Positions 13,115 to 52,747 of a stretch of 64,000 nt of DNA are shown one piece after another. Origin of the DNA: Eledone cirrhosa (taxonomy: Eukaryota). Every line of letters begins with the position of its first letter. Position 1 is the stretch's first letter. Both the position numbers and the translations under genes were made by a program. The notes under the pieces were generated by a model that saw nothing but the letters and a program-made list of their open reading frames with translations, made no database searches and had not been told where the DNA came from. The stretch covers positions 42,222,001 to 42,286,000 of the forward strand of contig OZ024755.1 of NCBI GenBank assembly GCA_964016885.1. Reading direction: 5' to 3'.

Positions 13115-13250
13115 CTCATATATATATATACATATACATATATATATATATATATATATACTCATATATATATTTATAATCATATATATATATGTATATA
13201 TGCATGCTTACTTATATATATATATAAATATATATATATATTAATTAAAA

Positions 13251-13482
13251 TAACAAATTAAAGTTTAAGCAAAACATCGGTGCTTTCACCCTTAACGGGA
13301 TCTTCTGAAACATTCTGAGTTTCAGAAGATCCCGTTAAGGGTGAAAGCACCGATTCTTTGCTTAAACTTTAATCTGTTATTTTAATAGATATTTTCTCTA
13401 CGGTTCTTATATATTTGATATGTATTTATCCTTATCGAGCCCTCTTTGGATTTTAGTCTTCAAATTTATTATTATTACTACT
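13251..13482. repeat. Dispersed repeat with snap-back inversion (sibling of 4535-4690)
   Basis: 13251-13310 is the reverse complement of ~13320-13385. Confidence 0.8.
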
Positions 13483-13602
13483 TATATATACTCATATATA
13501 TATATACTTATATATATATATATATATATATATACTTATATATATATATATATACTTATATATATACTTATATATATATATATATATTTATTTATACATA
13601 CT

Positions 13603-16320: not shown

Positions 16321-16469
16321 TTATATATATATACTTATATATATATATGTATTTATATATATATATATATATATACTTATATATATATATACTTATATAT
16401 ATATACTTATATATATATACTTATATATGATATTAAATAAATGGAAACTATATTTATAAAACCATATTT

Positions 16470-16533
16470 ATTTCGTTATATATATTTCAGGGATATCATA
16501 TTAACAATATGTTATGCCATCTTCAGACAAAAT
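16470..16533 (-). ncRNA. Type-I hammerhead (family A)
   Basis: ATTTTGT-CTGAAGA-stem II-GAAA-TATATA-TA^ACGAAAT on the minus strand. Confidence 0.8.
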
Positions 16534-16839
16534 ACAATATAAACAGTCTTATAAATAAATAGATACGACATACCTTTCAATCACCTTGCATTTGGTAGGT
16601 TGATTTGGCAGTAAAAAATATTGTGGACAGTTGTAAAAAGAAAGAGATAAAGAGAGAAAGAAAGAGAAACGAAGAAAAAGAAGAAATGCATGTGACTAAA
16701 TAGAGGGATATAGAAAGATAGATAAAGAGAAGAACTTCATGTAAAGAAACAGAGAGGAATATATATAGAGAGAGGAAAAAAGAAAGAGATAGATAGAGAT
16801 AGATAGAGAAATTAGGAAGTTGAGTATCGGTTGATACAT

Positions 16840-16874
<35 letters not shown>

Positions 16875-18246
16875 GCTCTAGTATTAATGTAAAGAGAGAT
16901 GTATGTAGTTAAGAGAGAAAATAGCCGTTATATAGAGAGAAAAAAGAGAAAATGAAAAAGAGAAAATGAAACACAACCAGACATAAACGATGCAGAATTT
17001 AAAACCGCTATGTTTTATCCGTAGAAAATATTAGTTCGTATAGACCAGGCATTATAATGTAAGTACCAGTATTCATGAATGAGACATGTACCTATAATGT
17101 GTGAAAAGTAATGATCTTATGTCTAGTTTTTAAAAATTCATATGTTTATATCATAATTATAAACAAACTCCCAATTCACACGAAAACATACTCATTGTGC
17201 TATAAAAATTCAAGTATACATATATGTGTGTATATATACACATATATATAGAGTCTATATTAATTTTAACAATACTATTCATGTCTTTATTCTACATGAT
17301 TGTCGATCAAGCAGAAATAGAGAACAGATTTCAATATATTAATAAAAATAAAATAAAAATATCAGAGACAAGAAAATAAATAAATAAACAGAAAACTAAA
17401 ACATTTAATATTAAAAATAAAAAATATTACAAAATATTAAAAAATATTAAAAAATAATACAAATAAAACACAGAGATCAGCCTTTCAAAGTTAATTGACA
17501 ATATATTGCCAAGATCATCATAAGCATCAGAGTCGAAACAGATAAAACAAAAATTGTTTACCAAATCCTGTCTAGCAGAAATCATTCCAAAAGTTTAGGA
17601 TACCCATTTGGTCTACATATGTTCTTATAAATTATATAGAAGTTTATCTAGTTTAAAATTTAATTTAATAAGATCATTACTTTTCACACATTATAGATAC
17701 ATGTCTCATTCATGAATACTGGTACTTACATTATAATGCCTGTTTTATACGAACTAATATTTTCTACGAATAAAACATAGCGGTTTTAAATTCTGCATCG
17801 TTTATGTCTGGTTGTGTTTCATTTTCTCTTTTTCATTTTCTCTTTTTTCTCTCTATATAACGGCTATTTTCTCTCTTAACTACATACATCTCTCTTTACA
17901 TTAATACTAGAGCTAAATAAATAAATAAATAAATAAATAAATGTATCAACCGATACTCAACTTCCTAATTTCTCTATCTATCTCTATCTATCTCTTTCTT
18001 TTTTCCTCTCTCTATATATATTCCTCTCTGTTTCTTTACATGAAGTTCTTCTCTTTATCTATCTTTCTATATCCCTCTATTTAGTCACATGCATTTCTTC
18101 TTTTTCTTCGTTTCTCTTTCTTTCTCTCTTTATCTCTTTCTTTTTACAACTGTCCACAATATTTTTTACTGCCAAATCAACCTACCAAATGCAAGGTGAT
18201 TGAAAGGTATGTCGTATCTATTTATTTATAAGACTGTTTATATTGT

Positions 18247-18310
18247 ATTTTGTCTGAAGATGGCATAACATATTGTTAATATGATATCCCTGAAATATAT
18301 ATAACGAAAT
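18247..18310 (+). ncRNA. Type-I hammerhead (family A)
   Basis: ATTTTGT-CTGAAGA-TGG..CCCT-GAAA-TATATA-TA^ACGAAAT. Confidence 0.8.
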
Positions 18311-18570
18311 AAATATGGTTTTATAAATATAGTTTCCATTTATTTAATATCATAAATATACTCCAAATACTTGTTGAGTGCTTTTATATCAGTTATAAAT
18401 ATTTACTCGTTGTTAACCCAACAATTTAAATATAACTTTCCATGTATATACTTATATATATATATATACTTATATATATATATATATACTTATATATATA
18501 TATATACTTATATATATATATACTTATATATATATATATATATATACTTATATATATATATATATATATA

Positions 18571-18672: not shown

Positions 18673-18991
18673 CTTATATATATATATATACTTATATATA
18701 TATATATACTTATATATATATATATACTTATATATATATATATATACTTATATATATATATATATATACTTATATATATATATATACTTATATATATATT
18801 TATATATATATACTTATATATATACTTATATATATATATACTTATATATATATATATACTTATATATATATATATACTTATATATATATATATATATACT
18901 CATATATATATATATATATATATACTTATATATATATATATATATTTATACGATATTAATAAATGGAAGCTATATTTATAAAACCATATTT

Positions 18992-19054
18992 ATTTCATTA
19001 TACATATTTCAAGGATACCATGTTAAATTATGGTATACCTTCATCAGATAAAAT
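18992..19054 (-). ncRNA. Type-I hammerhead (family A variant)
   Basis: Minus strand: ATTTTAT-CTGATGA-AGGTATACCAT..ATGGTATCCTT-GAAA-TATGTA-TA^ATGAAAT. Confidence 0.8.
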
Positions 19055-19081
19055 ACAATATATACCAGTTTTATAAATAAA

Positions 19082-19192
19082 CATTGACATACCCTTTCAA
19101 AATGCGACCGTTACTTTTGGAAGACATCAGGATAGTCACTATCCTGATGTCTTCCAAAAGTAACGGTCGCATTTTGAAAGGGTACGTCAATG
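19082..19192. repeat. ~110-bp near-perfect palindrome
   Basis: CATTGAC.TACCCTTTCAAAATGCGACC...GGATAGTCACTATCC...GGTCGCATTTTGAAAGGGTACGTCAATG. Confidence 0.9.
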
Positions 19193-19607: not shown

Positions 19608-19817
19608 TTATATATATATACTTATATATATATATACTTATATATAGTATTAAGGATACTATTTATGGTTATGTATATACTAAAACCTTTTTATAGTTAT
19701 ATATATTTTAAACCCTAAATAGTGAAAGACAGTAATTTATTACTATCTTATTACCAGTACGATAAATAGCTCAATGTAACAACATCAGTTGTTTTACAGA
19801 GCAGTTATATAGAAATT

Positions 19818-20192
19818 AAAAACGGCTGCTATTTCTGGCGGCACGAGTATAGGACTGCCTAGACGCTGGGATACCATGTGCGTTCAACAACACATTCTCT
19901 CAGTCTTCCTAAGTATTTTGAAGTGAAACATACCAATTTCTGGATACTTGCAGCTGAGCACAGAAATGGAATTTTCACTTATTGTTGCGAAACAGATTTG
20001 AGTTTTGAAATTTAAATTTGTCCAGGTATCACGGCTATTGCCAATATGGGTTTGTTTTTATTTATTTATTATTTTAAATCGAGACAGGCAAACTGTATTA
20101 ATTTAATTAGTATTTTTCAATCTAGCTAACTTGATCATTTGCAGTACAAACACATATATACTTGTATTCGTGTTTATCATATATTAATTTGT
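19818..20192. repeat. Inverted partial copy of the 495-bp repeat at 23992-25028
   Basis: Reverse complement of ~23992-24367. Confidence 0.85.
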
Positions 20193-20254
20193 ATAAGTAT
20201 ATATATATATATAAGTAAATATATATATATATATATAAGTATATATATATATAA

Positions 20255-23906: not shown

Positions 23907-23991
23907 TTATGTATATATATATATATATATATATACTTATATATATATATACTTATATATATATATATATATATACTTATATATATACTTA

Positions 23992-25028
23992 TACAAATTA
24001 ATATATGATAAACACGAATACAAGTATATATGTGTTTTTATTACAAATGATCAAGTTAGCTGGATTGAAAAGTACTAATTAAATTAATACAGTTTGCCTG
24101 TCTCGATTTAAAATAATAAATAAATAAAAGCAAACCCATATTGGCAATAGCCGTGATACCTGGACAAATTTAAATTTCAAAACTCAAATCTGTTTCGCAA
24201 CAATACGTGAAAATTCCATTTCTGTGCTCAGCTGCAGGTATCCATAAATTAGTATGTTTCACTTCAAAATACTTAGGAAGACTGAGGGAATGTGTTGTTG
24301 AACGCACATAGTGTCCCAGCGTCTAGCCAGTCCTATACTCGTACCGCCAGAAATAGCAGCCGTTTTTATGGGACTAAAAATTTAGCTCAAAACATGGAGC
24401 CCAGAATACTATATATAGAGTTATAAACTCAAACAGTCTTTTACAATTAAATAGCTCAAAGAAAGAGATATTTCCGAGCCGTGAAATACAAATTAATATA
24501 TGATAAACACTAATACAAGTATATAAGTGTTTGTAATGCAAATGACCAAGTTAGCTAGATTGAAAAATACTAATTAATTTAATACAGTTTGCCTGTCTCG
24601 ATTTAAAATAATAAATCAATAAAAACAAACCCATATTGGCAATAGCCGTGATACCTGGACAAATTTAAATTTCAAAACTCAAATCTGTTTCGCAACAATA
24701 AGTGAAAATTCCATTTCTGTGCTCAGCTGCAGGTATCCAGAAATTAGTATGTTTCACTTCAAAATACTTAGGAAGACTGAGAGAATGTGTTGTTGAACGC
24801 ACATGGTGTCCCAGCGTCTAGCCAGTCCTATACTCGTGCCGCCAGAAATAGCAGCCGTTTTTATGGGACTAAAAAATTTAGCTCAACACATGGAGCCGAG
24901 AATACTATATATAGAGTTATAAACTCAAACATGTGTTGAGCTAAATTTTTTAGTCCCATAAAACCGGCTGCTATTTCTGGCGGCACGAGTATAGGACTGG
25001 CTAGACGCTGGGACACCATGTGCGTTCA
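23992..25028. repeat. 495-bp tandem repeat (~1.9 copies) plus terminal snap-back inversion
   Basis: TACAAATTAATATATG at 23992 and 24487; 24931-25028 inverts ~24793-24892. Confidence 0.9.
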
Positions 25029-25050
25029 AACAAGTATATATATAAGTATA

Positions 25051-25234: not shown

Positions 25235-26647
25235 TGTTGTATGGCCTGTTAAATTCGTTTTATTCAATTTACACGTGCTCACACATTTGCATATGAATCA
25301 CGTGACCTGGCCAGTCAGTCAGCGTTGGTATTAAAAACTCGGTCACAGACTGCTACACTTACTTTATGTTATTCTGCTACTGTGAGGAGGGGCGTTTTGG
25401 TTGTTTCGTACAATACACAAATTATTTGATATAACTCGTTGTGATTTCTCTGCGAGTACCGAGAGGAATACAACAGAGTTTATTGGCGTCGACGATAAGA
25501 TTTACCTACATTGCCGATAGGATTTACCTACATTACCGATAGGATTTACCTACATTGCCGATAGGATTTACCTACATTACCGATAGGATTTACCTACATT
25601 GCCGATAGGATTTACCTACATTACCGATAGGGTTTACCTACATTGCCGATAGGATTTATCTACATTGCCGGGAAATTGTTTATTATAAAAACATGGCGGA
25701 ACAACAAACAGCGGAGCTAATAAAGTTGTTTAAAGAACAGATGGAACAACAGAGTTTATTGGCGTCGCAACAAATGCAACAACACAAGAAAGATATGGAC
25801 ACTCTGATAAAACTGTTTGGTGCTCGAGATTGTGAACAACAGAGTTTATTGGCGTCGCCAGTTGCTTCGACACCAACAGCATTCATTCCACCATTTGCTG
25901 CTTTTGATTCAACAACAGAACTATGGCCTGATTACTGTTCAAGATTCTGCACGTTTGTGGCTGCTAACGCTGTACCCGAGCAACTCATGGCACAAGTGTT
26001 CCTGACTAATCAGACGGCTGCTATCTACAAACAACTTGCAAATCTGGCTGCTCAACAAAATCTGCCTAAGGATATCAACAAGTTGACAATGGACGAAATT
26101 GTTGACTTCATGAAAGAACAGTTCGACCCAAAACGTTTCATTGTGAGAGAACGTTTCAAGTTCTGGAGTGACATGCAACGGAAGCCAGGCGAAACTCTCC
26201 AGGAGCTGGCAGCACGTATACGTCAGGATGCAGCTACCTGTGATTTTCCTTCGATCACAAATCCACAAGATGAAGCTCTAAGACAGAGATTTATATGTTC
26301 TGTCAATAATGAAGCTGTGTTGAAGGCTATTTTCAAGATCAAGGATACAGAACTAGATTTCGCCCGTGCTGTCCAAGTTGCCATCGGGACCGAAGACGCA
26401 GCAAAGGTTGCCAAGGAAACTGTTTACGGTTCCAAAACCAAGCAAGTCTACAAGGTCCAGCAGAACAAGAACAAGGGTCCTCGAAAGAACCATCAGCAGT
26501 CTTATTCCACAGACCAGGAGATGTGCTACCGATGTGGAAAGGCCCACAAAGCGACAGACTGCCCCTTCAAAGAAGCCAAATGTCATTTTTGTGACAAAAA
26601 GGGACATTTGCAAGCGGTGTGTAGAAAGAAACAACATCAGCAACGTA
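25235..26647 (+). mobile_element. Ty3/Gypsy (Mag-like) LTR + gag, truncated by a PLE
   Basis: LTR TGTTGTA(25235)...TACAACA(25475); PBS-like TGGCGTCG; gag ORF follows. Confidence 0.85.
25493..25668. repeat. 22-bp minisatellite x8 in the Gypsy leader
   Basis: CGATAGGATTTACCTACATT(G/A)C. Confidence 0.95.
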
Positions 26648-26691
26648 ATTTAACCGCCTTTATTCCTAAATCATGTGTAATGTTGGTGTAA
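25693..26691 (+). CDS. Gypsy Gag with two CCHC zinc knuckles (last ~14 codons come from the adjacent PLE inversion)
   Basis: 332-aa ORF; ERFKF...Q..GE...ELAARIR..A..C.F; CYRCGKAHKATDC and CHFCDKKGHLQAVC. Confidence 0.85.
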   Translation: MAEQQTAELIKLFKEQMEQQSLLASQQMQQHKKDMDTLIKLFGARDCEQQSLLASPVASTPTAFIPPFAAFDSTTELWPDYCSRFCTFVAANAVPEQLMAQVFLTNQTAAIYKQLANLAAQQNLPKDINKLTMDEIVDFMKEQFDPKRFIVRERFKFWSDMQRKPGETLQELAARIRQDAATCDFPSITNPQDEALRQRFICSVNNEAVLKAIFKIKDTELDFARAVQVAIGTEDAAKVAKETVYGSKTKQVYKVQQNKNKGPRKNHQQSYSTDQEMCYRCGKAHKATDCPFKEAKCHFCDKKGHLQAVCRKKQHQQRNLTAFIPKSCVMLV

Positions 26692-28260
26692 AGGCGCCCC
26701 ACCCACCGTCTAAGCAATTTTGTTGACATTATTTTGGAACCACTATGTATTCACATACCCAGTTTCATCCGGGATGATATCGACTTCCTGTCCCATCTTC
26801 CCCAAACCACGGAAACGAATTCACTTCTACTCAGTTTTGATGTGGTAAGCCTTTACACCAACATTACACATGATTTAGGAATAAAGGCGGTTAAATACTG
26901 GGTGGAAAAACATAGAGAAGTGATTCCCATCAGATTCACAGCGCCATTTATATTAGACGCAGTGAAACTTATTCTGGAAAACAACACTTTCTTCTTCAAT
27001 GGAAAGAATTACATCCAAATTAGAGGCACAGCGATGGGAACGAAGTTTGCTCCCGTTTACGCGAACTCTGTAATGAGATACTTAGAACAACAACTCTACC
27101 AAGAAATAGAGGAAAAATATAGTACTGACTTTAGAAAGTACATTGAAAAATCTTGGAAGAGATACCTTGACGACTGTTTCATCATCTGGACAGACTCTCT
27201 AGATACTCTGGATGAGTTCAATATCCTCCTGAATAACCTACATCCATCTCTCCAATTCACAAAAGAGATGAGTAGGACCAAATTACCATTCCTAGATATA
27301 ATTATAATCAAAAACGACACCACCATTACCACGGATATATATTATAAACACACAGACACCCAACAATATCTGAATTTTAAGTCGTGCCATCCACCTCATA
27401 CAAAACGCAACATCCCATACTGCTTAGCCAAAAGAATTTGTACCATTGTAGAAGATACGAATACCAGGTACAAACGCCTAACAGAACTAAGAGAATTTTT
27501 GCTCAAACAAAAATACCCATTTCTACTTATAGAAAATGGCATACAGCTGGCTATAAAAATACCTATACAACAACTTAGGACAACCCAAGGAAGAAGAAAC
27601 CAAGAACTGGTCATACCATTTATAATGACACACAACCCATGTCACCAGAATATCTTCAACACTGCCAAAGCAAACCTACCAAAGTAATGAATTAAAAGGC
27701 TTAATCACAGATCGATCTTTGACTCTTAGTAAAAGACAGCCAAAAAATTTGAAGCAATTACTAACAAAAGCAAAGTTTGACCTTAACAACAAAGACCAAT
27801 CATTCACTGTATCTAAATGCAATGATAGTCGATGCGGCACATGTCAATCCATACACACCGGTCAATATATGAAAACAAAAACTGGAAAAATATTCCCAAA
27901 TGCAAATATGAACTGCAAAAGCAGAAATCTAATTTACTGCATTAAATGCCCGAATTGTGAAGAACTATATGTCGGTCAAACTGGAAATGCACTATCGGAA
28001 CGTTCATGGGTACACCGTCAGCAAATCAGAGACCCAAATGTCCGTCAGATACCCCTAAGTAACCATCTAGCAACATGTGGTCAGGGAATATTTATAATAT
28101 TCCCATTCTACAAATTACACAGCCCAAGTGAAATCAAGAGAAAAATCAAAGAAAAGAATTTTATTGATAAATTCAAACCCAAGCTAAATGAACAATAATA
28201 ACGCTTAGGGGTATTACTTCTACTATGACTATGACTACGACCATGTCGACTACGACGACT

Positions 28261-29954: not shown

Positions 29955-30191
29955 GTAGAAGGATTTAAATGGATGCAGTTCAGTAAAAGGAATTTATTGA
30001 CACGTGTTTCAATAACAGTTATATAACCTGAAAACAGCTGTTATCTGCAAAGTATGCAGACATTCAATATTTCAATGTTGAAACTACAACTGGAACCGTC
30101 GAGCAAACCCTACGTGAGCTGTCCATCTACTGTGTGTATATATTCATATTACAACACTACGTAAAATACTATATATTTATATGTATATATA

Positions 30192-30324
<133 letters not shown>

Positions 30325-30577
30325 TTATTTATATATATATATATTTATATTTAAACAATTAAGTTAAAAATGTACATCCACATATGTATACTGAAATACT
30401 AGTATGCATATGAATACACACACGTGTACATATGTAGATGTACCGAGTTTTTCACTGGACACTTTACTGTGAGTGTTCAGCTATTCTGTATGTAAACACA
30501 CAGACAAACCGGTTTTTAGAGTCATACTGGTTTTCGAGGAAACACATTTCCTCTATTCTCCAGAAAGCCAGACAGGA

Positions 30578-30620
30578 ATATTGGACTAGTTTCGATGTTG
30601 TTACATCTCATCAGCAATAT
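30578..30620 (-). ncRNA. Canonical type-I hammerhead (family F)
   Basis: ATATTG-CTGATGA-GATGT-AACA-ACATC-GAAA-CTAG-TC^CAATAT. Confidence 0.93.
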
Positions 30621-31042
30621 TTACCTATCCTCCGGCCTTTCTAGAGAATCGTAAAAGCACATATCGTTATATGCTTTTTCTATGAAAATTAGTAGTGGGC
30701 AGACTAATTTGCATAGAGCGTGAGTACGTACCGGTTCAGCGGAGACGATAAAAACAAATAACGAAACGAAATTAAATTTCGTTTCGTTTGTAACTCACTT
30801 TTGTATGACTGACGCTTAAACAATTAAGTTAAAAATGTACATCCACATATGTATACTGAAATACTAGTATGCATATGAATACACACACGTGTACATATGT
30901 AGATGTACCGAGTTTTTCACTGGACACTTTACTGTGAGTGTTCAGCTATTCTGTATGTAAACACACAGACAAACCGGTTTTTAGAGTCATACTGGTTTTC
31001 GAGGAAACACATTTCCTCTATTCTCCAGAAAGCCAGACAGGA

Positions 31043-31085
31043 ATATTGGACTAGTTTCGATGTTGTTACATCTCATCAGCAATAT
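31043..31085 (-). ncRNA. Canonical type-I hammerhead (family F)
   Basis: Identical to the 30578 copy. Confidence 0.93.
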
Positions 31086-31371
31086 TTACCTATCCTCCGG
31101 CCTTTCTAGAGAATCGTAAAAGCACATATCGTTATATGCTTTTTCTATGAAAATTAGTAGTGGGCAGACTAATTTGCATAGAGCGTGAGTACGTACCGGT
31201 TCAGCGGAGACGATAAAAACAAATAACGAAACGAAATTAAATTTCGTTTCGTTTGTAACTCACTTTTGTATGACTGACGCTTAAACAATTAAGTTAAAAA
31301 TGTACATCCACATATTCGCATATAACGATATGTGCTTTTACGATTCTCTAGAAAGGCCGGAGGATAGGTAA

Positions 31372-31414
31372 ATATTGCTGATGAGATGTAACAACATCGA
31401 AACTAGTCCAATAT
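31372..31414 (+). ncRNA. Canonical type-I hammerhead (family F)
   Basis: ATATTG-CTGATGA-GATGT-AACA-ACATC-GAAA-CTAG-TC^CAATAT. Confidence 0.93.
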
Positions 31415-31836
31415 TCCTGTCTGGCTTTCTGAAGAATAGAGGAAATGTGTTTCCTCGAACACCAGTATGACTCTAAAAACCGGTTTCTGTGTGTGTTTAC
31501 ATACAGAATAGCTGAACACTCACAGTAAAGTGTCCAGTGAAAAACTCGGTACATCTACATATGTACACGTGTGTGTATTCATATGCATAGTAGTATTTCA
31601 GTATACATATGTGGATGTATATTTTTAACTTAATTGTTTAAGCGTCAGTCATACAAAAGTGAGTTACAAACGAAACGAAATTTAATTTCGTTTCGTTACT
31701 TGTTTTTATCGTCTCCGCTGAACCGGTACGTACTCACGCTCTATGCAAATTAGTCTGCCCACTACTAATTTTCATAGAAAAAGCATATAACGATATGTGC
31801 TTTTACGATTCTCTAGAAAGGCCGGAGGATAGGTAA

Positions 31837-31879
31837 ATATTGCTGATGAGATGTAACAACATCGAAACTAGTCCAATAT
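31837..31879 (+). ncRNA. Canonical type-I hammerhead (family F)
   Basis: Identical motif. Confidence 0.93.
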
Positions 31880-32301
31880 TCCTGTCTGGCTTTCTGGAGA
31901 ATAGAGGAAATGTGTTTCCTCGAAAACCAGTATGACTCTAAAAACCGGTTTGTCTGTGTGTTTACATACAGAATAGCTGAACACTCACAGTAAAGTGTCC
32001 AGTGAAAAACTCGGTACATCTACATATGTACACGTGTGTGTATTCATATGCATACTAGTATTTCAGTATACATATGTGGATGTACATTTTTAACTTAATT
32101 GTTTAAGTGTCAGTCATACAAAAGTGAGTTACAAACGAAACGAAATTTAATTTCGTTTCGTTATTTGTTTTTATCGTCTCCGCTGAACCGGTACGTACTC
32201 ACGCTCTATGCAAATTAGTCTGCCCACTACTAATTTTCATAGAAAAAGCATATAACGATATGTGCTTTTACGATTCTCTAGAAAGGCCGGAGGATAGGTA
32301 A

Positions 32302-32344
32302 ATATTGCTGATGAGATGTAACAACATCGAAACTAGTCCAATAT
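32302..32344 (+). ncRNA. Canonical type-I hammerhead (family F)
   Basis: Identical motif. Confidence 0.93.
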
Positions 32345-32652
32345 TCCTGTCTGGCTTTCTGGAGAATAGAGGAAATGTGTTTCCTCGAAAACCAGTATGA
32401 CTCTAAAAACCGGTTTGTCTGTGTGTTTACATACAGAATAGCTGAACACTCACAGTAAAGTGTCCAGTGAAAAACTCGGTACATCTACATATGTACACGT
32501 GTGTGTATTCATATGCATACTAGTATTTCAGTATACATATGTGGATGTACATTTTTAACTTAATTGTTTAAGCGTCAGTCATACAAAAGTGAGTTACAAA
32601 CGAAACGAAATTTAATTTCGTTTCGTTATTTGTTTTTATATTTATATTTATT

Positions 32653-32789
<137 letters not shown>

Positions 32790-32925
32790 TCACTGGGGAA
32801 CTGGAGTCATATGACTCCAGTTTCCCAGTGAATTAACAACCCAGCAAGGAACTGGGCATATCAGAGTATTGACAATATCATACACCTAAACAACATATGT
32901 ACTTGTCTATACCATACTAATTCAA

Positions 32926-32980
32926 ACTGCCTGAAGAGGTCACAGCCAAAGATGGCTGTCACTGAAATATATATAGCAGT
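32926..32980 (+). ncRNA. Type-I hammerhead (family G) in a ~240-bp insert that starts with a palindrome at 32788-32834
   Basis: ACTGC-CTGAAGA-GGTCACAGCCA-AAGA-TGGCTGTCACT-GAAA-TATATA-TA^GCAGT. Confidence 0.88.
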
Positions 32981-33024
32981 AATAAACGAAGCTAAATTTT
33001 AATCATTTGACTTTTATTTAACTT

Positions 33025-33063
<39 letters not shown>

Positions 33064-33209
33064 ATAAAAACATTTGAGTGCATTAGAGTCAAACACACTC
33101 ATCGTATTAGAGAAATGACAGTACAAGAGATAGCTCAATGTTATCAAACAGAGCCGAAAAAATTATATAAATCAACAAAGAAGCCTTTAATACATTAAAA
33201 ATCTTTAAT

Positions 33210-33252
33210 CGCTGACAATGTTTCCTCCCAGTTATTAGGCCTCTTCAGAGCA
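33210..33252 (-). ncRNA. Type-I minimal hammerhead (family H)
   Basis: Minus strand: TGCT-CTGAAGA-GGCCTAATAACTGGGAG-GAAAC-ATT-GTC^AGCG; weak stem II. Confidence 0.68.
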
Positions 33253-33970
33253 AGGAAAAGATAAAAAATATCAACGGCTAGAACAAGCCAAAATTCAGAA
33301 GAATAGAGAAATAGATAAATAGAAATTTAAATGTTACATTATAAGATATAATATGCAGGTAATATAAAAACAGGATAAGGGGGCAAGATCTAGGATGTGC
33401 CACACTGAATCTCTCTTAGAACTATGATAAAGGTACAAATGCCAGTGGAATACTCAGAGACTTACACGTTATTCTATTGCTCAAACAGCTGGAACACTCA
33501 TCACTGGAACTGATGAAGGTCCAACACACACATACGTACACACACACACAGTCCTAGAATTAAAGACCAGAGACTACATGAATTAAAAAAAGATTTTGAG
33601 TAATAGTGGAAAATCTGAGGGAGGAAGGTTTGATAACGTGAAGTCTAACAGATTAGGATATGAGACAGGAGAGAGGTAAGATGAGATGATGGAAGGATGA
33701 AGGTGAAAGAGTGAGGGATGGAATGGAGGAAGAAGGCGGTATCGGCCTTCGTCTTTCACTTGGATAACATTTATGGCATGGAGAGAGGAGAATGGTATAC
33801 ATGGGCAACTGCTGATATTTGACAACTCCCTTTCCTGGGGTTGGCCTCAAACGGGAATATTCCAGATGTACAACCCGTGGTCATTTGAGACCAAAGGGAG
33901 TCTTTGCCCTATATATATACATATATACACAAATATATATATACATATATACAAATATATATATACATAC

Positions 33971-34694: not shown

Positions 34695-36372
<1,678 letters not shown>

Positions 36373-36419
36373 CGTAAAAATAAGAAAATTGTAAAATTAA
36401 CTTACTTACTAAAATATCA

Positions 36420-36499
36420 CTTCCAACTAATTAGTTTCTGAAATGGAATAAATATACTTTCCGAAGAAAGCATAGAGAATCATTACGTCGTCAGGGAAA
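36420..36499 (-). ncRNA. Type-I hammerhead with extended stem II (family I)
   Basis: Minus strand: TTTCC-CTGACGA-[49 nt including ATGCTTTC-TTCG-GAAAGTAT]-GAAA-CTAATTAG-TT^GGAAG. Confidence 0.72.
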
Positions 36500-37018
36500 A
36501 CTGTTCTCAGCTAAGTATCCATGCAAGGCGTGGACTCTGGAAACTTATTCAAAAATAATTCAGTGGATTAGTTGGAAGTGATATTTTAGTAAGTAAGTTA
36601 ATTTTATAATTTTCTAATTTTACGTCTCTCATATTATTGTTCTGCAACCCCATGCATTGAACCACAAAGTTACTAAGACAAAACATATATTTGCTAGCAT
36701 TGATATGCATCTGTATGTATATATATGTTACTAGATATTAATTCTTTATAATTATCTCCAAATTATTTGTCGAGCAATATTGGCCAAATCTGCTGCTATG
36801 GTAGCAGGCAGGCCGCTGTCTTATTAGCAAACCACTTTCCACTGATTGACCTCGATGTCACGTGATTGATTCTTTTTGAATTTGCCACCGACGCAGAGGC
36901 AGTGATTTTCTCAATGGCTAGAAATTCAGTCCACGCTTTGCTATTTTCTATCCACTGAATTATTTTTGAATAAGTTTCCAGAGTCCACGCCTTGCCTGGA
37001 TACTTAGCTGAGAATAGT

Positions 37019-37098
37019 CTTCCCTGACGACGTAATGATTCTCCATGCTTTCTTCGGAAAGTATATTTATTCCATTTCAGAAACTAATTAGTTCGAAG
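37019..37098 (+). ncRNA. Hammerhead family I, stem I point mutant
   Basis: CTTCC-CTGACGA...GAAA-CTAATTAG-TT^CGAAG. Confidence 0.62.
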
Positions 37099-37268
37099 TG
37101 ATATTTTAGTAAGTAAGTTAATTTTATAATTTTGTTATTTTACGTCTCTCATATTATTGTTCTGCAACCCCATGCATTAAACCACAAGGTTACTAAGACA
37201 AAACCTATATATTTGCTAGCATTGATATGCATCTGTATGTATATATATGTTACTAGATATTAATTCTT

Positions 37269-37935: not shown

Positions 37936-39684
37936 GTATATATATATGTATATATGTATATGTGTAAGGTGTTCGTGCATTTTTTAAATTATGGACGTAC
38001 GCTGCTAAATCCCATCCATATACTCCTCATAGTAGAGTATGCAACCTGTGCCTTGCCGAATCCCACTCTATTATATTTGCTAAATGCCCTCTACTAAATA
38101 GAAAGTCTGAAATTTTTTCCTCTTGCCCCCACCGAATATTAAGCTCTTTCTTCTACTTTAAACCTGTTAGCTAGCACGTCCTTATTCCTCCAGTTGGGCT
38201 GTCTTGTGTAACTGTCTCTGACTGAGTGTAACTGTCTCCTAATGTTGGTCGTCTATGTATACGAGTCTGTGAATGTATACGTATGCCTGTGGGAGGATAT
38301 TGATCTTGATATTGGGGTGTGCAGGGGAGTGTATGTTAATAAGCACCCCTGTTTGGTACAGTGGATGTAACCCATCCACGCTGGCCTACCCACCATTAGT
38401 GCATTGGTGAACCTATCCTGACGTATATCTTGTTGATCTGTACCTCTGTATGCGCATGAGTTGTGATGTAATGTATTTATGTAAAGCGTGTACTGTGATT
38501 TAGGCTGCACTAGTGGAAATTTAGCCTGTAACTGTGGGCGGACCCGTGCCATCCTGCCGTAAGCAGTGGATACTTGGCGCATATACGTGTTGCCCTCATA
38601 TTCTGTGGTTCAAGATCTACAGGCTGACCTCTGGGAGCTCTTACCCGGGGTCGTAGTCTTTCTAGCACGATCGGCCTTCCATATATTGACTGTCGTTTTT
38701 ATGATCCCGAAAGTAACGTTTTGGCCCCGATGGCCCTCCGTAGTTACTAACGGTCTGTGTACACTCGAATCGGTCAATGGCACGTGCAGACATGAATATC
38801 TCCGTAGGATTTCAACTTTATTTTAATACATCTCATCGTATGTATTTGTTTTGAATATATTACCTGTGGTGGTGGGTCTGGTCTAATGTGGTATTTCGGT
38901 GTTTAATATCGTATTTAATATCGTATTTAATATCGGCTTTGACCCGGGTGTCCTATGCTGTGTGTGTGTGCGTGTGTGTCCGTGTATACATTTATATGTG
39001 TATGGGTGTAGGTGGTTATATGTGTCTGTGTATATTTAAAAAAAAAATATATATATATATGTATACCGTCTCTGCATATGCATGTGGTGTGTATACGTGC
39101 ATATACGTGCTGAACATATTGATGTGTACAATCTTGTGATGTCCCAATGCGGTGACTTAATGGCTCTTGAAGCTATTTTTTTATATATCTTCTGTCTTTT
39201 TATATATATTTTGTATGCGCTACAACTGTGTCTGCTTGCTTTAACCTCACCTCGCTTGCTAATGCATGTGAATTCTTCTACCTCCTTCGATGCACCTCTC
39301 TCTGACCATTTGACTCCTGCCCGTGTGTGAACCGGTTTGTGATTACCCCACCGCTCAACTGTGTGAATGCACACCCATGACTTTCGAGTGAACTTTCGAG
39401 ACTGCCCAACCTGGGACGCCTCCATTGCCTTGCAATGGTCAAGTGATACTGGTGACTGTGACACTTAGTGCCTTCGTGGGCCCCTGATGTTTTCAAGAAA
39501 TATATTTTAAAAAATTGGTCAAGTGATACACATAACTGTGACATTTAGTGCCTTCGTGGGCCCCTGATATATTCAAGAGATATATTCTAAAAAAATATAT
39601 ATCTTATCTCAATTTACTTTATTTCATTTTATTTTATTTCATTTCATGTTATCTAATTTTATTTATTTACTTACTTGACTCCAT

Positions 39685-39720
<36 letters not shown>

Positions 39721-39788
39721 ATTTAAATTTGAATTTTAATTTTAAAATTTTAAAATTTAAATTTTAATTTTATTTATTTATTTAATTT

Positions 39789-39820
<32 letters not shown>

Positions 39821-40401
39821 TTACATTTAATTACATTTAATTATACATTTAATTATATCTTATATTATATTATTTTAATTTAGTCTATGTTATTTGATTT
39901 TAGTTTACCTTATTTTATCTTATTTTACGATTATACTATATTATGTTCTATGTATATAATTTTTAATTTTTAATTTTATATTATTTTATCTCATTCCTTA
40001 CCCTATATTTTATATTTTATATGTAAGTTTGTTATGTATTTCTTTGTATTTCTTTTTATATATATTATAAGTCTGTTTTTCACCTATTTTTTACCTATTT
40101 TTTACCTACTCTTACCTAATCCCATTATCTTATCTACTCTTGTCTGTTCTCTTATCCATGTGTCTACTCTTGTCTGTTCTCTTATCCATGTGTATGCTTG
40201 TATGTAACTATATGTTGACAGCACCCCGCCCAACTGTGACTGATAGCACCCCTTATTTTTATTTTTATTTTTATTTTTATTTTTATTTTTATTTTTACTT
40301 TTATTTTTATTTTTATTCTTATCCTCTATCGTCTATTATTACCTTTCATTCTTCAATGTCTTGGATTTGTTATTGCTTGTATGGTATGTAATTAACCTTT
40401 A

Positions 40402-40447
40402 TGCTCTGATGAGTTCCACTTATAGTGCGGATGAAACAATGTTAGCA
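40402..40447 (+). ncRNA. Type-I minimal hammerhead (family J)
   Basis: TGCT-CTGATGA-GTTCCACT-TAT-AGTGCGGAT-GAAAC-AAT-GTT^AGCA. Confidence 0.85.
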
Positions 40448-40660
40448 AGTAAAGATATGCATATGCTATAAGCGTTCTTTGTTATTTATTTATTATATTA
40501 CGGCTCTGTCCTCAGACATTGAGCTAACCTCATACTGCCTGCTGGATAAGTGGAGTGTTATACACCCCTGATCCTTTCCCTAGCATACTATACGGCTCCC
40601 ACTGGTTGAGCTTAAACTTTGATATACGCGGATTTGCGTCCTTGTATATTATCAGGCAGT

Positions 40661-43153
40661 ATGCTAACAAAGACATACTTACCCATTTCCTTGAAGAATA
40701 TTCCCACCCACCCCTAAAATCTCGTATGAGAAATCATTGATAACTAGCATAAACTCATTCGTAAAACGTGTTCGGTGGCGTGCGTTCCACTTTGATAGGA
40801 GGTATGATAGCCCTGAGGAGAGGCGTAGTTTTAATAATTATGGATTTAAGACCTATAGGAGCCCCCCCGCATAATAGCCTGTTGGATAACTTCGAAAGTG
40901 AGCTATTATCCCTTGTTAGGAATATTAGATATAAAAAATCTAGATGTACCAATAAATTTCAGAGTAAACTAAGTTCAATCGTTAGGGACTTTAGGGATAA
41001 TAAATCCATTCTGGTCCCCTCTGACAAAACTAAAAACTTATATAGTATGGATTATAAAACCTATCGAGGCTTCATTTATAATGAACTACATAGGAACTAC
41101 AAAAAAACAACGCAGAGTAATTTAGATAATATTAATCTGGAGGGGTATAACATAGTGGTAAAATTAGGTCTGGATAAACACACTCAGCCTTATTACCCCA
41201 AGCAGCCTAGATTCACCCTCAAGGACCACAAGGAAGATTTTATTAGCAGACCCTCGGTTAGGCTTATCTGCCCCTCCAAGTCTGACCTGGGGATTATTAG
41301 TAAGGGAATCTTGGATAGCGTTATTCCCCTGGTTAGAGAAAAAACTTTCCTTGAGCTTTGGGGGTAACACTAGTGAGGTCATTACATGGTTCTCTACTGA
41401 TTGTGGTCGTGACTCACTAAAATTCATCCAATTTGATATTGATGCTTATTATACATCTATATCTCCTATTATCCTCAATAAGGCCCTCATCCTAGCCATG
41501 CGGAGGGGGGCAATTACTAGGCCACAGATAGATATTGTTCTCGCTGCACGTAAAACCATTATCATGTTTGAGGATAATCTATGGACGAGAAAAAACACAC
41601 CTGATAATTTTGACATCACTATGGGGTCGAGTGACTCTGCTCAAGTCACCGACTTAGTTGGACTATACCTCCTCAATGAACTGCATAGTAACTTCCCTTT
41701 CCTTAGGGGTGGGTTGTACCGAGATGACGCCCTACTCTCCATAGATACTAGTAAGTATAATATAGAGCGCATTAGGAAAAAGCTGCATAGCTTTTTTAAA
41801 ACTTTTAACCTATCCATTACAATGGATGTAAATGATAGAACTGTGAACTTCCTAGATGTTACACTGGACTTGGATAACCATACGTACACACCGTACCATA
41901 AGCCCAATGAATTGCTGACTTACGTGAATACCAACTCCAACCACCCTAGGTCTGTCATCAGCGGTATACTGAAGGGCGTATCTAACAGAATAAGTTCACT
42001 CTCACATAGTGAGGAGGCGTTTGACTCGCAGGCTGATTACTATAACGACGCCTTAGCTAGATCCGGCTTTAGGGACAAATTGTATTACACCCAGGGAAAT
42101 AATGGTCCTAATAGTAGCTCTACCAGTGTTGTTATAACACATAATATGTCCATTGGTAATCGAGGTGTCGCGAATGGTAGGGTTCTAAATGCCGGTGGAA
42201 TGAAACAGCAGGGCACCATTAGTCTAAGTAATAACAATAGAGGTGTCGTGAACGGGAGGTTTCTAGATGCCGGTGGAATGAACCAGCAGGGCACCATTAG
42301 TCTAAGTAATAGCAATGGTGGGCCTCGCAGCTCCCCGCATAGACTAGGTGAGCATAGGAACCGTAGAAATAATAATGCTAATAATACTGACGGAAATAGA
42401 AAGAATAAAAAGAATAGAAGAAGATTGAATACATACTTCAACCCCCCTTTTAATTCTGAAGTGGCTACAAATATTCCTAGGGCCTTCTTCTCTGTGCTAG
42501 AACGGAACTTCCCTCCTGGTAATAGGTACCACTCTATCCTCAATAAGAATGTTGTTAAACTTTCGTATTCTACAACCCAAAATCTGGCCTCTCATCTGAC
42601 CATTACTAATAATAAGAAAATAAAGGAAGGCCTGGACAACCTAAGCCTAGGGGAAAACACGGTAGTGGATAGAGTGGGCAGTAACACTGGTGGTAATCTT
42701 TCTGAGAATAGCATCACCAGTGGTTGTAACTGTAGAAGGGCTTTAGGCTGCCCCCTGAATGGTTTCTGCCTTGTTAGAAACATAGTTTATGCGTGTGATG
42801 TGGTAACTACGGCGTCCACTATGACCTATATAGGATCAACTTCCACCCCCTTTAAGACCAGGTTTAACTCTCATCAATGCACTTTTAGACATAATAAACT
42901 GAAGAACTCCACCTCCTTGGCAGCGTACGTCCATAATTTAAAAAATGCACGAACACCTTACACACTTACTTGGCGGCAGGTTGCTAAATCCCATCCATAT
43001 ACTCCTCATAGTAGAGTATGCAACCTGTGCCTTGCCGAATCCCACTCTATTATATTTGCTAAATGCCCTCTACTAAATAGAAAGTCTGAAATTTTTTCCT
43101 CTTGCCCCCACCGAATATTAAGCTCTTTCTTCTACTTTAAACCTGTTAGCTAG
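40661..43153 (+). CDS. PLE RT-GIY-YIG polyprotein (~829 aa reconstructed), split by three +1 frameshifts at ~40714, ~40868 and ~41364
   Basis: ATG 40661 MLTKTYLPISLKNIP / PKISYEKSLI..NSFVKRVRWRAFHF..YGFKT..SPP / LLDNFE..SDKTKNLY..TLKDHK..RLICPSKSDLG..LWG / NTSEVITWF..GLYRDD..CNC..CPL..YIGST..CNLC. Confidence 0.9.
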
Positions 43154-44663
43154 CACGTCCTTATTCCTCCAGTTGGGCTGTCTTGTGTAACTGTCTCTGA
43201 CTGAGTGTAACTGTCTCCTAATGTTGGTCGTCTATGTATACGAGTCTGTGAATGTATACGTATGCCTGTGGGAGGATATTGATCTTGATATTGGGGTGTG
43301 CAGGGGAGTGTATGTTAATAAGCACCCCTGTTTGGTACAGTGGATGTAACCCATCCACGCTGGCCTACCCACCATTAGTGCATTGGTGAACCTATCCTGA
43401 CGTATATCTTGTTGATCTGTACCTCTGTATGCGCATGAGTTGTGATGTAATGTATTTATGTAAAGCGTGTACTGTGATTTAGGCTGCACTAGTGGAAATT
43501 TAGCCTGTAACTGTGGGCGGACCCGTGCCATCCTGCCGTAAGCAGTGGATACTTGGCGCATATACGTGTTGCCCTCATATTCTGTGGTTCAAGATCTACA
43601 GGCTGACCTCTGGGAGCTCTTACCCGGGGTCGTAGTCTTTCTAGCACGATCGGCCTTCCATATATTGACTGTCGTTTTTATGATCCCGAAAGTAACGTTT
43701 TGGCCCCGATGGCCCTCCGTAGTTACTAACGGTCTGTGTACACTCGAATCGGTCAATGGCACGTGCAGACATGAATATCTCCGTAGGATTTCAACTTTAT
43801 TTTAATACATCTCATCGTATGTATTTGTTTTGAATATATTACCTGTGGTGGTGGGTCTGGTCTAATGTGGTATTTCGGTGTTTAATATCGTATTTAATAT
43901 CGTATTTAATATCGGCTTTGACCCGGGTGTCCTACGCTGTGTGTGTGTGCGTGTGTGTCCGTGTATACATTTATATGTGTATGGGTGTAGGTGGTTATAT
44001 GTGTCTGTGTATATTTAAAAAAAAAATATATATATATATGTATACCGTCTCTGCATATGCATGTGGTGTGTATACGTGCATATACGTGCTGAACATATTG
44101 ATGTGTACAATCTTGTGATGTCCCAATGCGGTGACTTAATGGCTCTTGAAGCTATTTTTTTATATATCTTCTGTCTTTTTATATATATTTTGTATGCGCT
44201 ACAACTGTGTCTGCTTGCTTTAACCTCACCTCGCTTGCTAATGCATGTGAATTCTTCTACCTCCTTCGATGCACCTCTCTCTGACCATTTGACTCCTGCC
44301 CGTGTGTGAACCGGTTTGTGATTACCCCACCGCTCAACTGTGTGAATGCACACCCATGACTTTCGAGTGAACTTTCGAGACTGCCCAACCTGGGACGCCT
44401 CCATTGCCTTGCAATGGTCAAGTGATACTGGTGACTGTGACACTTAGTGCCTTCGTGGGCCCCTGATGTTTTCAAGAAATATATTTTAAAAAATTGGTCA
44501 AGTGATACACATAACTGTGACATTTAGTGCCTTCGTGGGCCCCTGATATATTCAAGAGATATATTCTAAAAAAATATATATCTTATCTCAATTTACTTTA
44601 TTTCATTTTATTTTATTTCATTTCATGTTATCTAATTTTATTTATTTACTTACTTGACTCCAT

Positions 44664-44699
<36 letters not shown>

Positions 44700-44767
44700 A
44701 TTTAAATTTGAATTTTAATTTTAAAATTTTAAAATTTAAATTTTAATTTTATTTATTTATTTAATTT

Positions 44768-44799
<32 letters not shown>

Positions 44800-45374
44800 T
44801 TACATTTAATTACATTTAATTATACATTTAATTATATCTTATATTATATTATTTTAATTTAGTCTATGTTATTTGATTTTAGTTTACCTTATTTTATCTT
44901 ATTTTACGATTATACTATATTATGTTCTATGTATATAATTTTTAATTTTTAATTTTATATTATTTTATCTCATTCCTTACCCTATATTTTATATTTTATA
45001 TGTAAGTTTGTTATGTATTTCTTTGTATTTCTTTTTATATATATTATAAGTCTGTTTTTCACCTATTTTTTACCTATTTTTTACCTACTCTTACCTAATC
45101 CCATTATCTTATCTACTCTTGTCTGTTCTCTTATCCATGTGTCTACTCTTGTCTGTTCTCTTATCCATGTGTATGCTTGTATGTAACTATATGTTGACAG
45201 CACCCCGCCCAACTGTGACTGATAGCACCCCTTATTTTTATTTTTATTTTTATTTTTATTTTTATTTTTACTTTTATTTTTATTTTTATTCTTATCCTCT
45301 ATCGTCTATTATTACCTTTCATTCTTCAATGTCTTGGATTTGTTATTGCTTGTATGGTATGTAATTAACCTTTA

Positions 45375-45420
45375 TGCTCTGATGAGTTCCACTTATAGTG
45401 CGGATGAAACAATGTTAGCA
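45375..45420 (+). ncRNA. Type-I minimal hammerhead (family J), copy 2
   Basis: Identical to 40402. Confidence 0.85.
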
Positions 45421-45633
45421 AGTAAAGATATGCATATGCTATAAGCGTTCTTTGTTATTTATTTATTATATTACGGCTCTGTCCTCAGACATTGAGCTAA
45501 CCTCATACTGCCTGCTGGATAAGTGGAGTGTTATACACCCCTGATCCTTTCCCTAGCATACTATACGGCTCCCACTGGTTGAGCTTAAACTTTGATATAC
45601 GCGGATTTGCGTCCTTGTATATTATCAGGCAGT

Positions 45634-48126
45634 ATGCTAACAAAGACATACTTACCCATTTCCTTGAAGAATATTCCCACCCACCCCTAAAATCTCGTAT
45701 GAGAAATCATTGATAACTAGCATAAACTCATTCGTAAAACGTGTTCGGTGGCGTGCGTTCCACTTTGATAGGAGGTATGATAGCCCTGAGGAGAGGCGTA
45801 GTTTTAATAATTATGGATTTAAGACCTATAGGAGCCCCCCCGCATAATAGCCTGTTGGATAACTTCGAAAGTGAGCTATTATCCCTTGTTAGGAATATTA
45901 GATATAAAAAATCTAGATGTACCAATAAATTTCAGAGTAAACTAAGTTCAATCGTTAGGGACTTTAGGGATAATAAATCCATTCTGGTCCCCTCTGACAA
46001 AACTAAAAACTTATATAGTATGGATTATAAAACCTATCGAGGCTTCATTTATAATGAACTACATAGGAACTACAAAAAAACAACGCAGAGTAATTTAGAT
46101 AATATTAATCTGGAGGGGTATAACATAGTGGTAAAATTAGGTCTGGATAAACACACTCAGCCTTATTACCCCAAGCAGCCTAGATTCACCCTCAAGGACC
46201 ACAAGGAAGATTTTATTAGCAGACCCTCGGTTAGGCTTATCTGCCCCTCCAAGTCTGACCTGGGGATTATTAGTAAGGGAATCTTGGATAGCGTTATTCC
46301 CCTGGTTAGAGAAAAAACTTTCCTTGAGCTTTGGGGGTAACACTAGTGAGGTCATTACATGGTTCTCTACTGATTGTGGTCGTGACTCACTAAAATTCAT
46401 CCAATTTGATATTGATGCTTATTATACATCTATATCTCCTATTATCCTCAATAAGGCCCTCATCCTAGCCATGCGGAGGGGGGCAATTACTAGGCCACAG
46501 ATAGATATTGTTCTCGCTGCACGTAAAACCATTATCATGTTTGAGGATAATCTATGGACGAGAAAAAACACACCTGATAATTTTGACATCACTATGGGGT
46601 CGAGTGACTCTGCTCAAGTCACCGACTTAGTTGGACTATACCTCCTCAATGAACTGCATAGTAACTTCCCTTTCCTTAGGGGTGGGTTGTACCGAGATGA
46701 CGCCCTACTCTCCATAGATACTAGTAAGTATAATATAGAGCGCATTAGGAAAAAGCTGCATAGCTTTTTTAAAACTTTTAACCTATCCATTACAATGGAT
46801 GTAAATGATAGAACTGTGAACTTCCTAGATGTTACACTGGACTTGGATAACCATACGTACACACCGTACCATAAGCCCAATGAATTGCTGACTTACGTGA
46901 ATACCAACTCCAACCACCCTAGGTCTGTCATCAGCGGTATACTGAAGGGCGTATCTAACAGAATAAGTTCACTCTCACATAGTGAGGAGGCGTTTGACTC
47001 GCAGGCTGATTACTATAACGACGCCTTAGCTAGATCCGGCTTTAGGGACAAATTGTATTACACCCAGGGAAATAATGGTCCTAATAGTAGCTCTACCAGT
47101 GTTGTTATAACACATAATATGTCCATTGGTAATCGAGGTGTCGCGAATGGTAGGGTTCTAAATGCCGGTGGAATGAAACAGCAGGGCACCATTAGTCTAA
47201 GTAATAACAATAGAGGTGTCGTGAACGGGAGGTTTCTAGATGCCGGTGGAATGAACCAGCAGGGCACCATTAGTCTAAGTAATAGCAATGGTGGGCCTCG
47301 CAGCTCCCCGCATAGACTAGGTGAGCATAGGAACCGTAGAAATAATAATGCTAATAATACTGACGGAAATAGAAAGAATAAAAAGAATAGAAGAAGATTG
47401 AATACATACTTCAACCCCCCTTTTAATTCTGAAGTGGCTACAAATATTCCTAGGGCCTTCTTCTCTGTGCTAGAACGGAACTTCCCTCCTGGTAATAGGT
47501 ACCACTCTATCCTCAATAAGAATGTTGTTAAACTTTCGTATTCTACAACCCAAAATCTGGCCTCTCATCTGACCATTACTAATAATAAGAAAATAAAGGA
47601 AGGCCTGGACAACCTAAGCCTAGGGGAAAACACGGTAGTGGATAGAGTGGGCAGTAACACTGGTGGTAATCTTTCTGAGAATAGCATCACCAGTGGTTGT
47701 AACTGTAGAAGGGCTTTAGGCTGCCCCCTGAATGGTTTCTGCCTTGTTAGAAACATAGTTTATGCGTGTGATGTGGTAACTACGGCGTCCACTATGACCT
47801 ATATAGGATCAACTTCCACCCCCTTTAAGACCAGGTTTAACTCTCATCAATGCACTTTTAGACATAATAAACTGAAGAACTCCACCTCCTTGGCAGCGTA
47901 CGTCCATAATTTAAAAAATGCACGAACACCTTACACACTTACTTGGCGGCAGGTTGCTAAATCCCATCCATATACTCCTCATAGTAGAGTATGCAACCTG
48001 TGCCTTGCCGAATCCCACTCTATTATATTTGCTAAATGCCCTCTACTAAATAGAAAGTCTGAAATTTTTTCCTCTTGCCCCCACCGAATATTAAGCTCTT
48101 TCTTCTACTTTAAACCTGTTAGCTAG
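45634..48126 (+). CDS. PLE RT-GIY-YIG polyprotein, copy 2, same three frameshifts
   Basis: ORFs 45741-46340 and 46324-48126 translate identically to copy 1. Confidence 0.9.
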
Positions 48127-49636: not shown

Positions 49637-49672
<36 letters not shown>

Positions 49673-50331
49673 ATTTAAATTTGAATTTTAATTTTAAAAT
49701 TTTAAAATTTAAATTTTAATTTTATTTATTTATTTAATTTTTATTTATTTATTTATTTATTTATTTAATTACATTTAATTACATTTAATTATACATTTAA
49801 TTATATCTTATATTATATTATTTTAATTTAGTCTATGTTATTTGATTTTAGTTTACCTTATTTTATCTTATTTTACGATTATACTATATTATGTTCTATG
49901 TATATAATTTTTAATTTTTAATTTTATATTATTTTATCTCATTCCTTACCCTATATTTTATATTTTATATGTAAGTTTGTTATGTATTTCTTTGTATTTC
50001 TTTTTATATATATTATAAGTCTGTTTTTCACCTATTTTTTACCTATTTTTTACCTACTCTTACCTAATCCCATTATCTTATCTACTCTTGTCTGTTCTCT
50101 TATCCATGTGTCTACTCTTGTCTGTTCTCTTATCCATGTGTATGCTTGTATGTAACTATATGTTGACAGCACCCCGCCCAACTGTGACTGATAGCACCCC
50201 TTATTTTTATTTTTATTTTTATTTTTACTTTTATTTTTATTTTTATTCTTATCCTCTATCGTCTATTATTACCTTTCATTCTTCAATGTCTTGGATTTGT
50301 TATTGCTTGTATGGTATGTAATTAACCTTTA

Positions 50332-50422: not shown

Positions 50423-52747
<2,325 letters not shown>

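Follow-up and report, generated by a model that had tools for sequence, protein, structure and literature searches.

A head-to-head array of hammerhead retrozyme units between TA repeats, probably a single insertion made by Penelope-like enzymes

The window analysed here, a 64-kb stretch of DNA, consists of eukaryotic repeats; among them are long TA tracts and several frames for Penelope-type reverse transcriptase (RT) and GIY-YIG. It holds an array with a period of 465 bp, which TRF resolves into two blocks: 2.1 copies with 100% matches at 30351-31315 and 2.8 copies with 98% matches at 31318-32639. The first block amounts to 2.08 unit copies on the minus strand and the second to 2.84 on the plus strand, and the two diverge from a 2-nt junction (Table 1; unit position 1 is the base after GUC). 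The 3' ends of both arms face outward into TA tracts, while the 5' ends meet at the 2-nt insert. The array has no unique central region, and the longest open frame in a trimer of the unit is 68 aa, with no RT or GIY-YIG frame. A preliminary description of this DNA had proposed a non-coding 465-bp unit in two minus-strand and three plus-strand copies forming a large inverted repeat, and the TRF blocks, the pairing of the arms and the 68-aa maximum frame agree with it. Its estimates of where the outer ends lie, about 230 and 295 nt past the ribozyme, are refined by the measured values of 233 and 301, the right end being at 32639. It passes over the (TA)n target, the duplication of that target and the similarly built neighbours.

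Table 1. Features of the array and of the inverted insertions around it (positions in the window)
Feature	Position	Strand	Description
Left target-duplication copy (likely)	30317-30350	+	34 nt, interrupted TA repeat; end of TA tract 30170-30350
Left arm	30351-31315	-	965 nt, unit 199 to 233, 2.08 units, all passes identical; 3' end is the short end (233)
Hammerhead 5	30562-30643	-	Cleavage after 30584
Hammerhead 4	31027-31108	-	Cleavage after 31049
5'-to-5' junction	31316-31317		Two bases; match the continuation of neither arm
Right arm	31318-32639	+	1322 nt, unit 375 to 301, 2.84 units; 3' end is the long end (301)
Hammerhead 1	31349-31430	+	Cleavage after 31408
Variant monomer	31409-31873	+	Seven private changes: 31432, 31460, 31487, 31489, 31590, 31620, 31699
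Hammerhead 2	31814-31895	+	Cleavage after 31873; long stem I with bulge, 5-bp helix II, palindromic stub helix III
Full cleavage-to-cleavage monomer	31874-32338	+	465 nt, 36% GC, one CpG-type change at 32108
Hammerhead 3	32279-32360	+	Cleavage after 32338
One-sided tail	32572-32639	+	68 nt, unit 234-301; 13-bp hairpin, U-rich end
Right target-duplication copy (likely)	32640-32677	+	Two TA units longer; start of TA tract 32640-32789
Small inverted insertion in TA tract	4806-5068		One-sided tail of about 66 nt
Small inverted insertion in TA tract	13242-13493		One-sided tail of about 90 nt
Neighbour C	16420-18452		Head-to-head insertion, AT-rich non-coding family; tail of about 90 nt
Inversion with partial tandem, like the retrozyme array	36367-37268		Tail of about 117 nt
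Neighbour E	52749-53755		Head-to-head insertion, same family as 16420-18452; tail of about 90 nt

The inverted arms pair 30351-31315 with 31607-32571 over 965 nt with 3 mismatches and a 291-nt spacer, the longest perfect run in this pairing being 463; in the other register they pair over 789 nt around a 178-nt spacer. As a circle, the monomer is predicted to fold with a minimum free energy of -152.7 kcal/mol (z of -10.9 against 100 shuffles) and with 68% of its bases paired. Of 24 letters common in other copies, 4 break predicted pairs against 8.4 expected (P = 0.012), a value that becomes 0.29 if the three changes scored as compensatory, whose phase is not known, are counted as breaks. Patterns of the pol III A and B boxes are absent from the unit. 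Matches from a sigma-70 promoter scan, which is irrelevant to a eukaryote, were at chance level and were discarded, as were Rfam microRNA and snoRNA matches, which are hairpin matches far below gathering.

All five type I hammerheads are identical over 82 nt (two minus, three plus), with CUGAUGA, GAAA and GUC intact in each. The five perfect hammerheads of the preliminary description are therefore confirmed, but not the uniformity of the array, which has seven changes within 31432-31699 and one at 32108. Its canonical GUC hammerhead in each unit likewise holds for the core but not for helix III, which is a single A-U pair around a palindromic CUAG, a dimer-type motif; because helix III is such a stub, cleavage likely needs two units. 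The Rfam model HH9 matches with an E value of 6e-7 and 34.2 bits, below its gathering score of 52, and no Rfam family matches at gathering anywhere in the 64-kb window, so that the motif is a hammerhead by structure and lies outside curated HH9 membership. The stem I bulge and loop 2 align to HH9 with high posterior; the tertiary contact between loops 1 and 2 is a feature of the Schistosoma structure and is putative here. In folding models of the natural dimer (31790-32385), the double hammerhead under constraint reaches -200.1 kcal/mol. Two single active folds score -190.7, worse by 9.4 kcal/mol, whereas the inactive minimum of -205.5 lies 5.4 kcal/mol lower; for either active helix III, a probability close to zero is predicted.

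On such models, cleavage by this ribozyme is plausible. Accessible text on the axolotl HHR_Amex1 describes the same form of helix III in a ribozyme that cleaves poorly alone and well as a dimer (PMC7229834), and it and the amphibian satellite hammerheads share with our motif the one-pair helix III and the palindromic tetraloop, efficient cleavage needing dimers (PMC7229834; PMC4209133). Motifs with so short a helix III are still termed canonical (PMC4209133, in the part available). The present case differs from HHR_Amex1 in that cleavage is putative and that the host looks invertebrate, a weak hint taken from the Argonauta and Octopus relatives of a Penelope protein in the window. Only one of nine Xenopus dimers cleaved, according to the available text of a recent preprint (bioRxiv 10.64898/2026.07.22.740005), and sequence alone is therefore no proof of activity. 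In helix II, A443U as well as U454A is present in other sequencing runs, and the cleavage-site C at 31408 reads T in 335 of 524 minus-mate reads of run X22, in 137 of 206 of the depth of run X4 and in about 3% of the depth of run X1. The cleavage triplet is GUU in many X22 reads and in one X4 contig, and many copies may, by these letters, cleave weakly.

Transcripts of one arm would likely cleave by way of the double hammerhead, and the monomers could then circularise as those of other retrozymes do; by this analogy, monomer release and circles are plausible. A transcript reading through both arms would likely fold instead into a long hairpin with a duplex of up to 965 bp. Such a hairpin would cover two of the three sense hammerheads, and dsRNA formation and monomer release would therefore compete. 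The neighbouring inverted insertions could also form hairpins, so this property is not special to the locus.

In its sequence, the array shows every feature of non-LTR retrozymes that we checked. Those of metazoans, in the accessible text of two accounts (PMC7229834; bioRxiv 10.64898/2026.07.22.740005), have the same short, low-GC tandem unit with one type I hammerhead and no ORF, and, also like the array, a highly self-paired predicted monomer, a target duplication of more than 4 bp and co-occurrence with Penelope-like elements. Here the unit has 465 bp and 36% GC, all five units have the type I core, and the target duplication is about 34 nt. This unit length is just above the 150-450 bp given in one account (PMC7229834) and inside the 51-972 bp given in the other (bioRxiv 10.64898/2026.07.22.740005), as far as their available text goes. 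Inverted arms, a tail and fixed RT starts are not described for metazoan retrozymes in the accessible text of these two sources.

The first 26 nt of the target motif occur only at 30317 and 32640 on either strand of the 64-kb window, and the two motif copies, in direct orientation, abut both ends of the array. This pair is likely a target duplication, about 34 nt in length. Past the TA tracts, the unique sequence on one side bears no relation to that on the other and is not mirrored (BLAST, no match). Unrelated flanks together with a direct duplication of the motif point to one integration event rather than a fold-back chimera. Long hairpins between TA tracts are difficult to sequence, and the clustered changes could be read errors; the strand-change joint 31315/31318 is also absent from all four runs examined, none of which is apparently the source sample (best word share 0.71). 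However, a fold-back read or an assembly chimera would not leave unique flanks without mirroring, would be expected to invert the flank motif rather than duplicate it directly, and does not fit with neighbours of the same design whose arms are 92-100% identical. We regard such an artefact as very improbable.

The neighbouring insertions were taken from 28 other TA-bounded segments listed in the window; tails were analysed in five, chosen for inverted arms plus an extra stretch (Table 1). Four of the five contain outward-diverging hammerhead-like cores, and the identity between arms is 92-100%. Neighbours C and E, two insertions of one family, share a short and a long end, which are about 90 nt apart and have their sides swapped, and the long end of a further neighbour family, B, is found again at 4685. 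For the neighbours, no clear target duplication could be demonstrated, since such a duplication is indistinguishable from periodic TA interruptions. Relatives of the C and E family lie at 770-975 and 18946-19100. Cores resembling hammerheads are also found at 32931 (plus strand) and 33248 (minus strand), with a 46-nt palindrome at 32788-32833; these, in the region 32778-33400, are likely Penelope remnants. Direct repeats of 446 nt, which have palindromic ends and lie in TA tracts, form a family at 23988-25034 and 19647-20197, and a hammerhead core was not found in it.

Pfam matches to RT and GIY-YIG domains were obtained on three of the nine Penelope-type frames in the window, two of them below the curated cut-off. 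Against the other elements of the window, the unit gave TA-like low-complexity matches only, and no pLTR homology to the autonomous elements, among the matches listed. One Penelope-type element, at 37956-50423, is present in about 2.5 tandem copies with a period of about 4.97 kb and identity of 99% or more, and has RT and C-terminal GIY-YIG-like frames. Each copy has a minimal hammerhead near its 3' end, a 48-nt inverted piece stands at the 5' end, and the coding region is split over two frames identically in both full copies; the named relatives of its protein are from the cephalopods Argonauta and Octopus, at 33-45% identity. Elsewhere, a 992-aa stop-free frame at 9848-12826 on the minus strand has AP endonuclease and RT domains and is a LINE. 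A gag-like frame with a zinc knuckle (25609-26691) is followed directly by Penelope-type RT and GIY-YIG frames (26692-28198), the whole probably being nested fragments, and a 22-bp sequence is repeated eight times in tandem at 25493-25670.

Words of the unit were present in 20 of the 24 run rows returned (17 organisms, 16 studies), three of which hold half of the words or more. No RNA run was among the rows listed, a result with no bearing on expression. Four runs were aligned to 31270-31795: X1 with 1025 contigs, X22 with 3378 reads, X4 with 34 contigs and X5 with one. Runs X6-X20, with small word shares, were excluded as evidence, and summed contig depth was not taken as copy number. Two runs from organisms besides organism A match most of the unit. 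Among the loose ends listed, 11 contigs of X1 pass from the unit into TA repeat at 31709, and this position is unit 301, the same base as the right end of the array; the same end is seen in records 6 and 7 of X1 and in record 15 of X4. The ends of other copies had been put forward in the preliminary description as a check, with one fixed position for all of them as the outcome that would speak against it, and the recurrence of the 301 end comes close to that outcome. The loose ends listed do not include the 233 end. X22 (RAD) read ends at 31632, 31682, 31684, 31751 and 31770 were rejected as insertion ends because they are AATT sites, that is, library cuts, and the ends at 31500 and 31502 are probably library cuts as well. 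The single contig of X5, 495 nt long, makes one full turn of the unit, and its first base, 31710, directly follows the fixed 3' end; since a tandem array or a circle would be expected to give this alike, it is a lead only.

The recurrent end bears on the proposal that RT starts anywhere on a 465-nt circle and rolls, producing randomly permuted multimers. Such a course is that of the published retrozyme model (PMC7761336, in its accessible part), and both arms do exceed one unit and cross intact ribozyme sites. Letters rare in X1 that are common to all passes would also fit one lineage, unless X1 is another species or population. However, random starts do not account for an end at 301 that recurs in 11 contigs among the loose ends listed or for the fixed paired ends of neighbour families, and seven of eight changes in one monomer are unexpected from a single circle with uniform errors. 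We therefore hold random starts to be unlikely, and the circularly permuted ends of the preliminary description are not supported. A circular template with fixed starts is compatible with the Penelope explanation that we favour.

We consider it probable that the head-to-head array between TA-repeat target copies is a non-LTR retrozyme that entered in a single insertion by a Penelope-like RT/GIY-YIG enzyme acting in trans. The observations behind this are the architecture of the array, the target duplication, the identical ribozyme sequences, the recurrent 301 end and the neighbours of the same design; what we infer is which enzyme acted, where the second start lies, how the cDNAs were joined and what form the template had. 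The enzyme would nick both (TA)n strands about 34 nt apart, and each 3' end would prime cDNA at a fixed internal site of the RNA, unit 301 or 233, leaving the one-sided tail of 68 nt, which is likely the stretch between the two RT start sites. Each cDNA would pass two or three uncleaved ribozyme sites, from which it would follow that the template was a circle or an uncut multimer. The two truncated cDNAs would then be joined with two extra bases, giving the inversion. Because the 301 end recurs and neighbours share the design, the unlike ends fit the two-start-site Penelope signature and not random permutation.

Several properties of Penelope-like elements are consistent with this course. Their insertions include partial tandems, an inverted 5'-truncated copy and a one-sided tail, and several clades prefer (TA)n targets (PMC8557442, accessible text). 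In vitro, a Poseidon protein cleaves AT-rich DNA on both strands and extends each of them; its RT has two internal start sites, the tail being the interval between them, and uncleaved RNA is its main substrate (PMC11167929). The available text on EN+ Penelope-like insertions describes, as here, a partial tandem with an inverted 5'-truncated copy at the 5' end, a one-sided tail and a (TA)n or AT-rich target (PMC8557442; PMC11167929). The array differs from them in having no RT/EN frame and in its tail of 68 nt, against 30-40 nt (same sources), and it has a full type I hammerhead with a long stem I where they have a minimal variant. MRC1-type elements of Chlamys likewise code for no protein, are carried along by a Penelope-type enzyme and form multicopy head-to-tail insertions, but they share 3' sequence with an autonomous partner and belong to a clade without canonical hammerheads (PMC8557442, as far as accessible). 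Unlike MRC1, the unit has no partner homology in the window among the matches listed. The array lacks a poly(A) end, its arms are overlapping copies of a repeat unit and its target is (TA)n, which sets it apart from L1 twin priming. In L1 twin priming, both target ends prime cDNA, and a 5' inversion arises inside one target duplication.

The inversion could also have come about if one cDNA had folded back and copied itself to give the left arm. The arms are 99.7% complementary and a short CATAT motif stands on both sides of the junction, which would suit such a snap-back. However, the stretch from which the left arm was supposedly copied has changes at 31620, 31699 and 32108 that are missing from this arm, the alternative register provides only 568 of the 965 nt, the junction is asymmetric (a loop of 291 or 178 nt), and the stop at 233 is left unexplained. 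Snap-back, part of the preliminary mechanism, is on this evidence slightly less probable again than random starts; the retrozyme identity, the Penelope-type RT and the two priming events of that mechanism are retained. Unequal crossover as in a satellite, followed by inversion at the DNA level, is a suggested route for retrozyme tandems (bioRxiv 10.64898/2026.07.22.740005, accessible text) and could account for the one divergent unit. It predicts neither a one-sided tail or a fixed end common to other loci nor a single target duplication around both arms, and we give it as little weight as an assembly artefact.

Returning to insertion by a Penelope-like enzyme, the letters of the array give some indication of its template. 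Letters that X1 has only rarely (0.14% at unit 419 and 0.56% at unit 107) are common to every pass of both arms, which points to one template lineage, provided that X1 is the same species or population. Seven of the eight changes fall in the monomer 31409-31873 that adjoins the junction (P of about 1e-4 for a given monomer); each of these private letters reaches at most 0.9% of the X1 depth, and three break predicted pairs. The cluster could stem from template switching, from a mixed multimer, from local repair or from read error. As the left arm has neither the changes of this monomer nor that at 32108, simple copying of the right arm does not account for it. A more tentative proposal is that the template was a ligated 465-nt circle, on which a Penelope RT dimer beside the 13-bp hairpin made fixed starts at 301 and 233 from both nicks and ran for two to three rounds, with one switch of circle. 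If this were so, insertions of this kind would directly record, in the genome, how Penelope carries out twin-primed rolling reverse transcription on a circular RNA of an animal, and a recognition site would for the first time be defined in an animal retrozyme. If the 17 organisms with unit words were also distant taxa, the circle would spread between hosts as well.

The array reveals no new class, and inversion is routine in this genome; it is likely a known kind of animal retrozyme that was inserted by the enzymes of Penelope retrotransposons. Non-LTR retrozymes have already been argued to be non-autonomous Penelope derivatives (bioRxiv 10.64898/2026.07.22.740005, accessible text), while the available part of a 2020 review states that retrozyme repeats show no motif pointing to a partner (PMC7761336). 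The literature searched, in its accessible parts, contains no description of retrozyme insertions that combine an inversion, a tail and fixed ends. In the sources accessible to us, the mobilising enzyme of animal retrozymes has so far been argued from co-occurrence and pLTR similarity. This locus bears a Penelope insertion fingerprint itself, in its TA target, duplication, inversion, tail and fixed end, and it names two candidate RT start sites that could be tested by a published in vitro assay. The array thus provides support at the level of the insertion for the mobilisation of retrozymes by Penelope elements.
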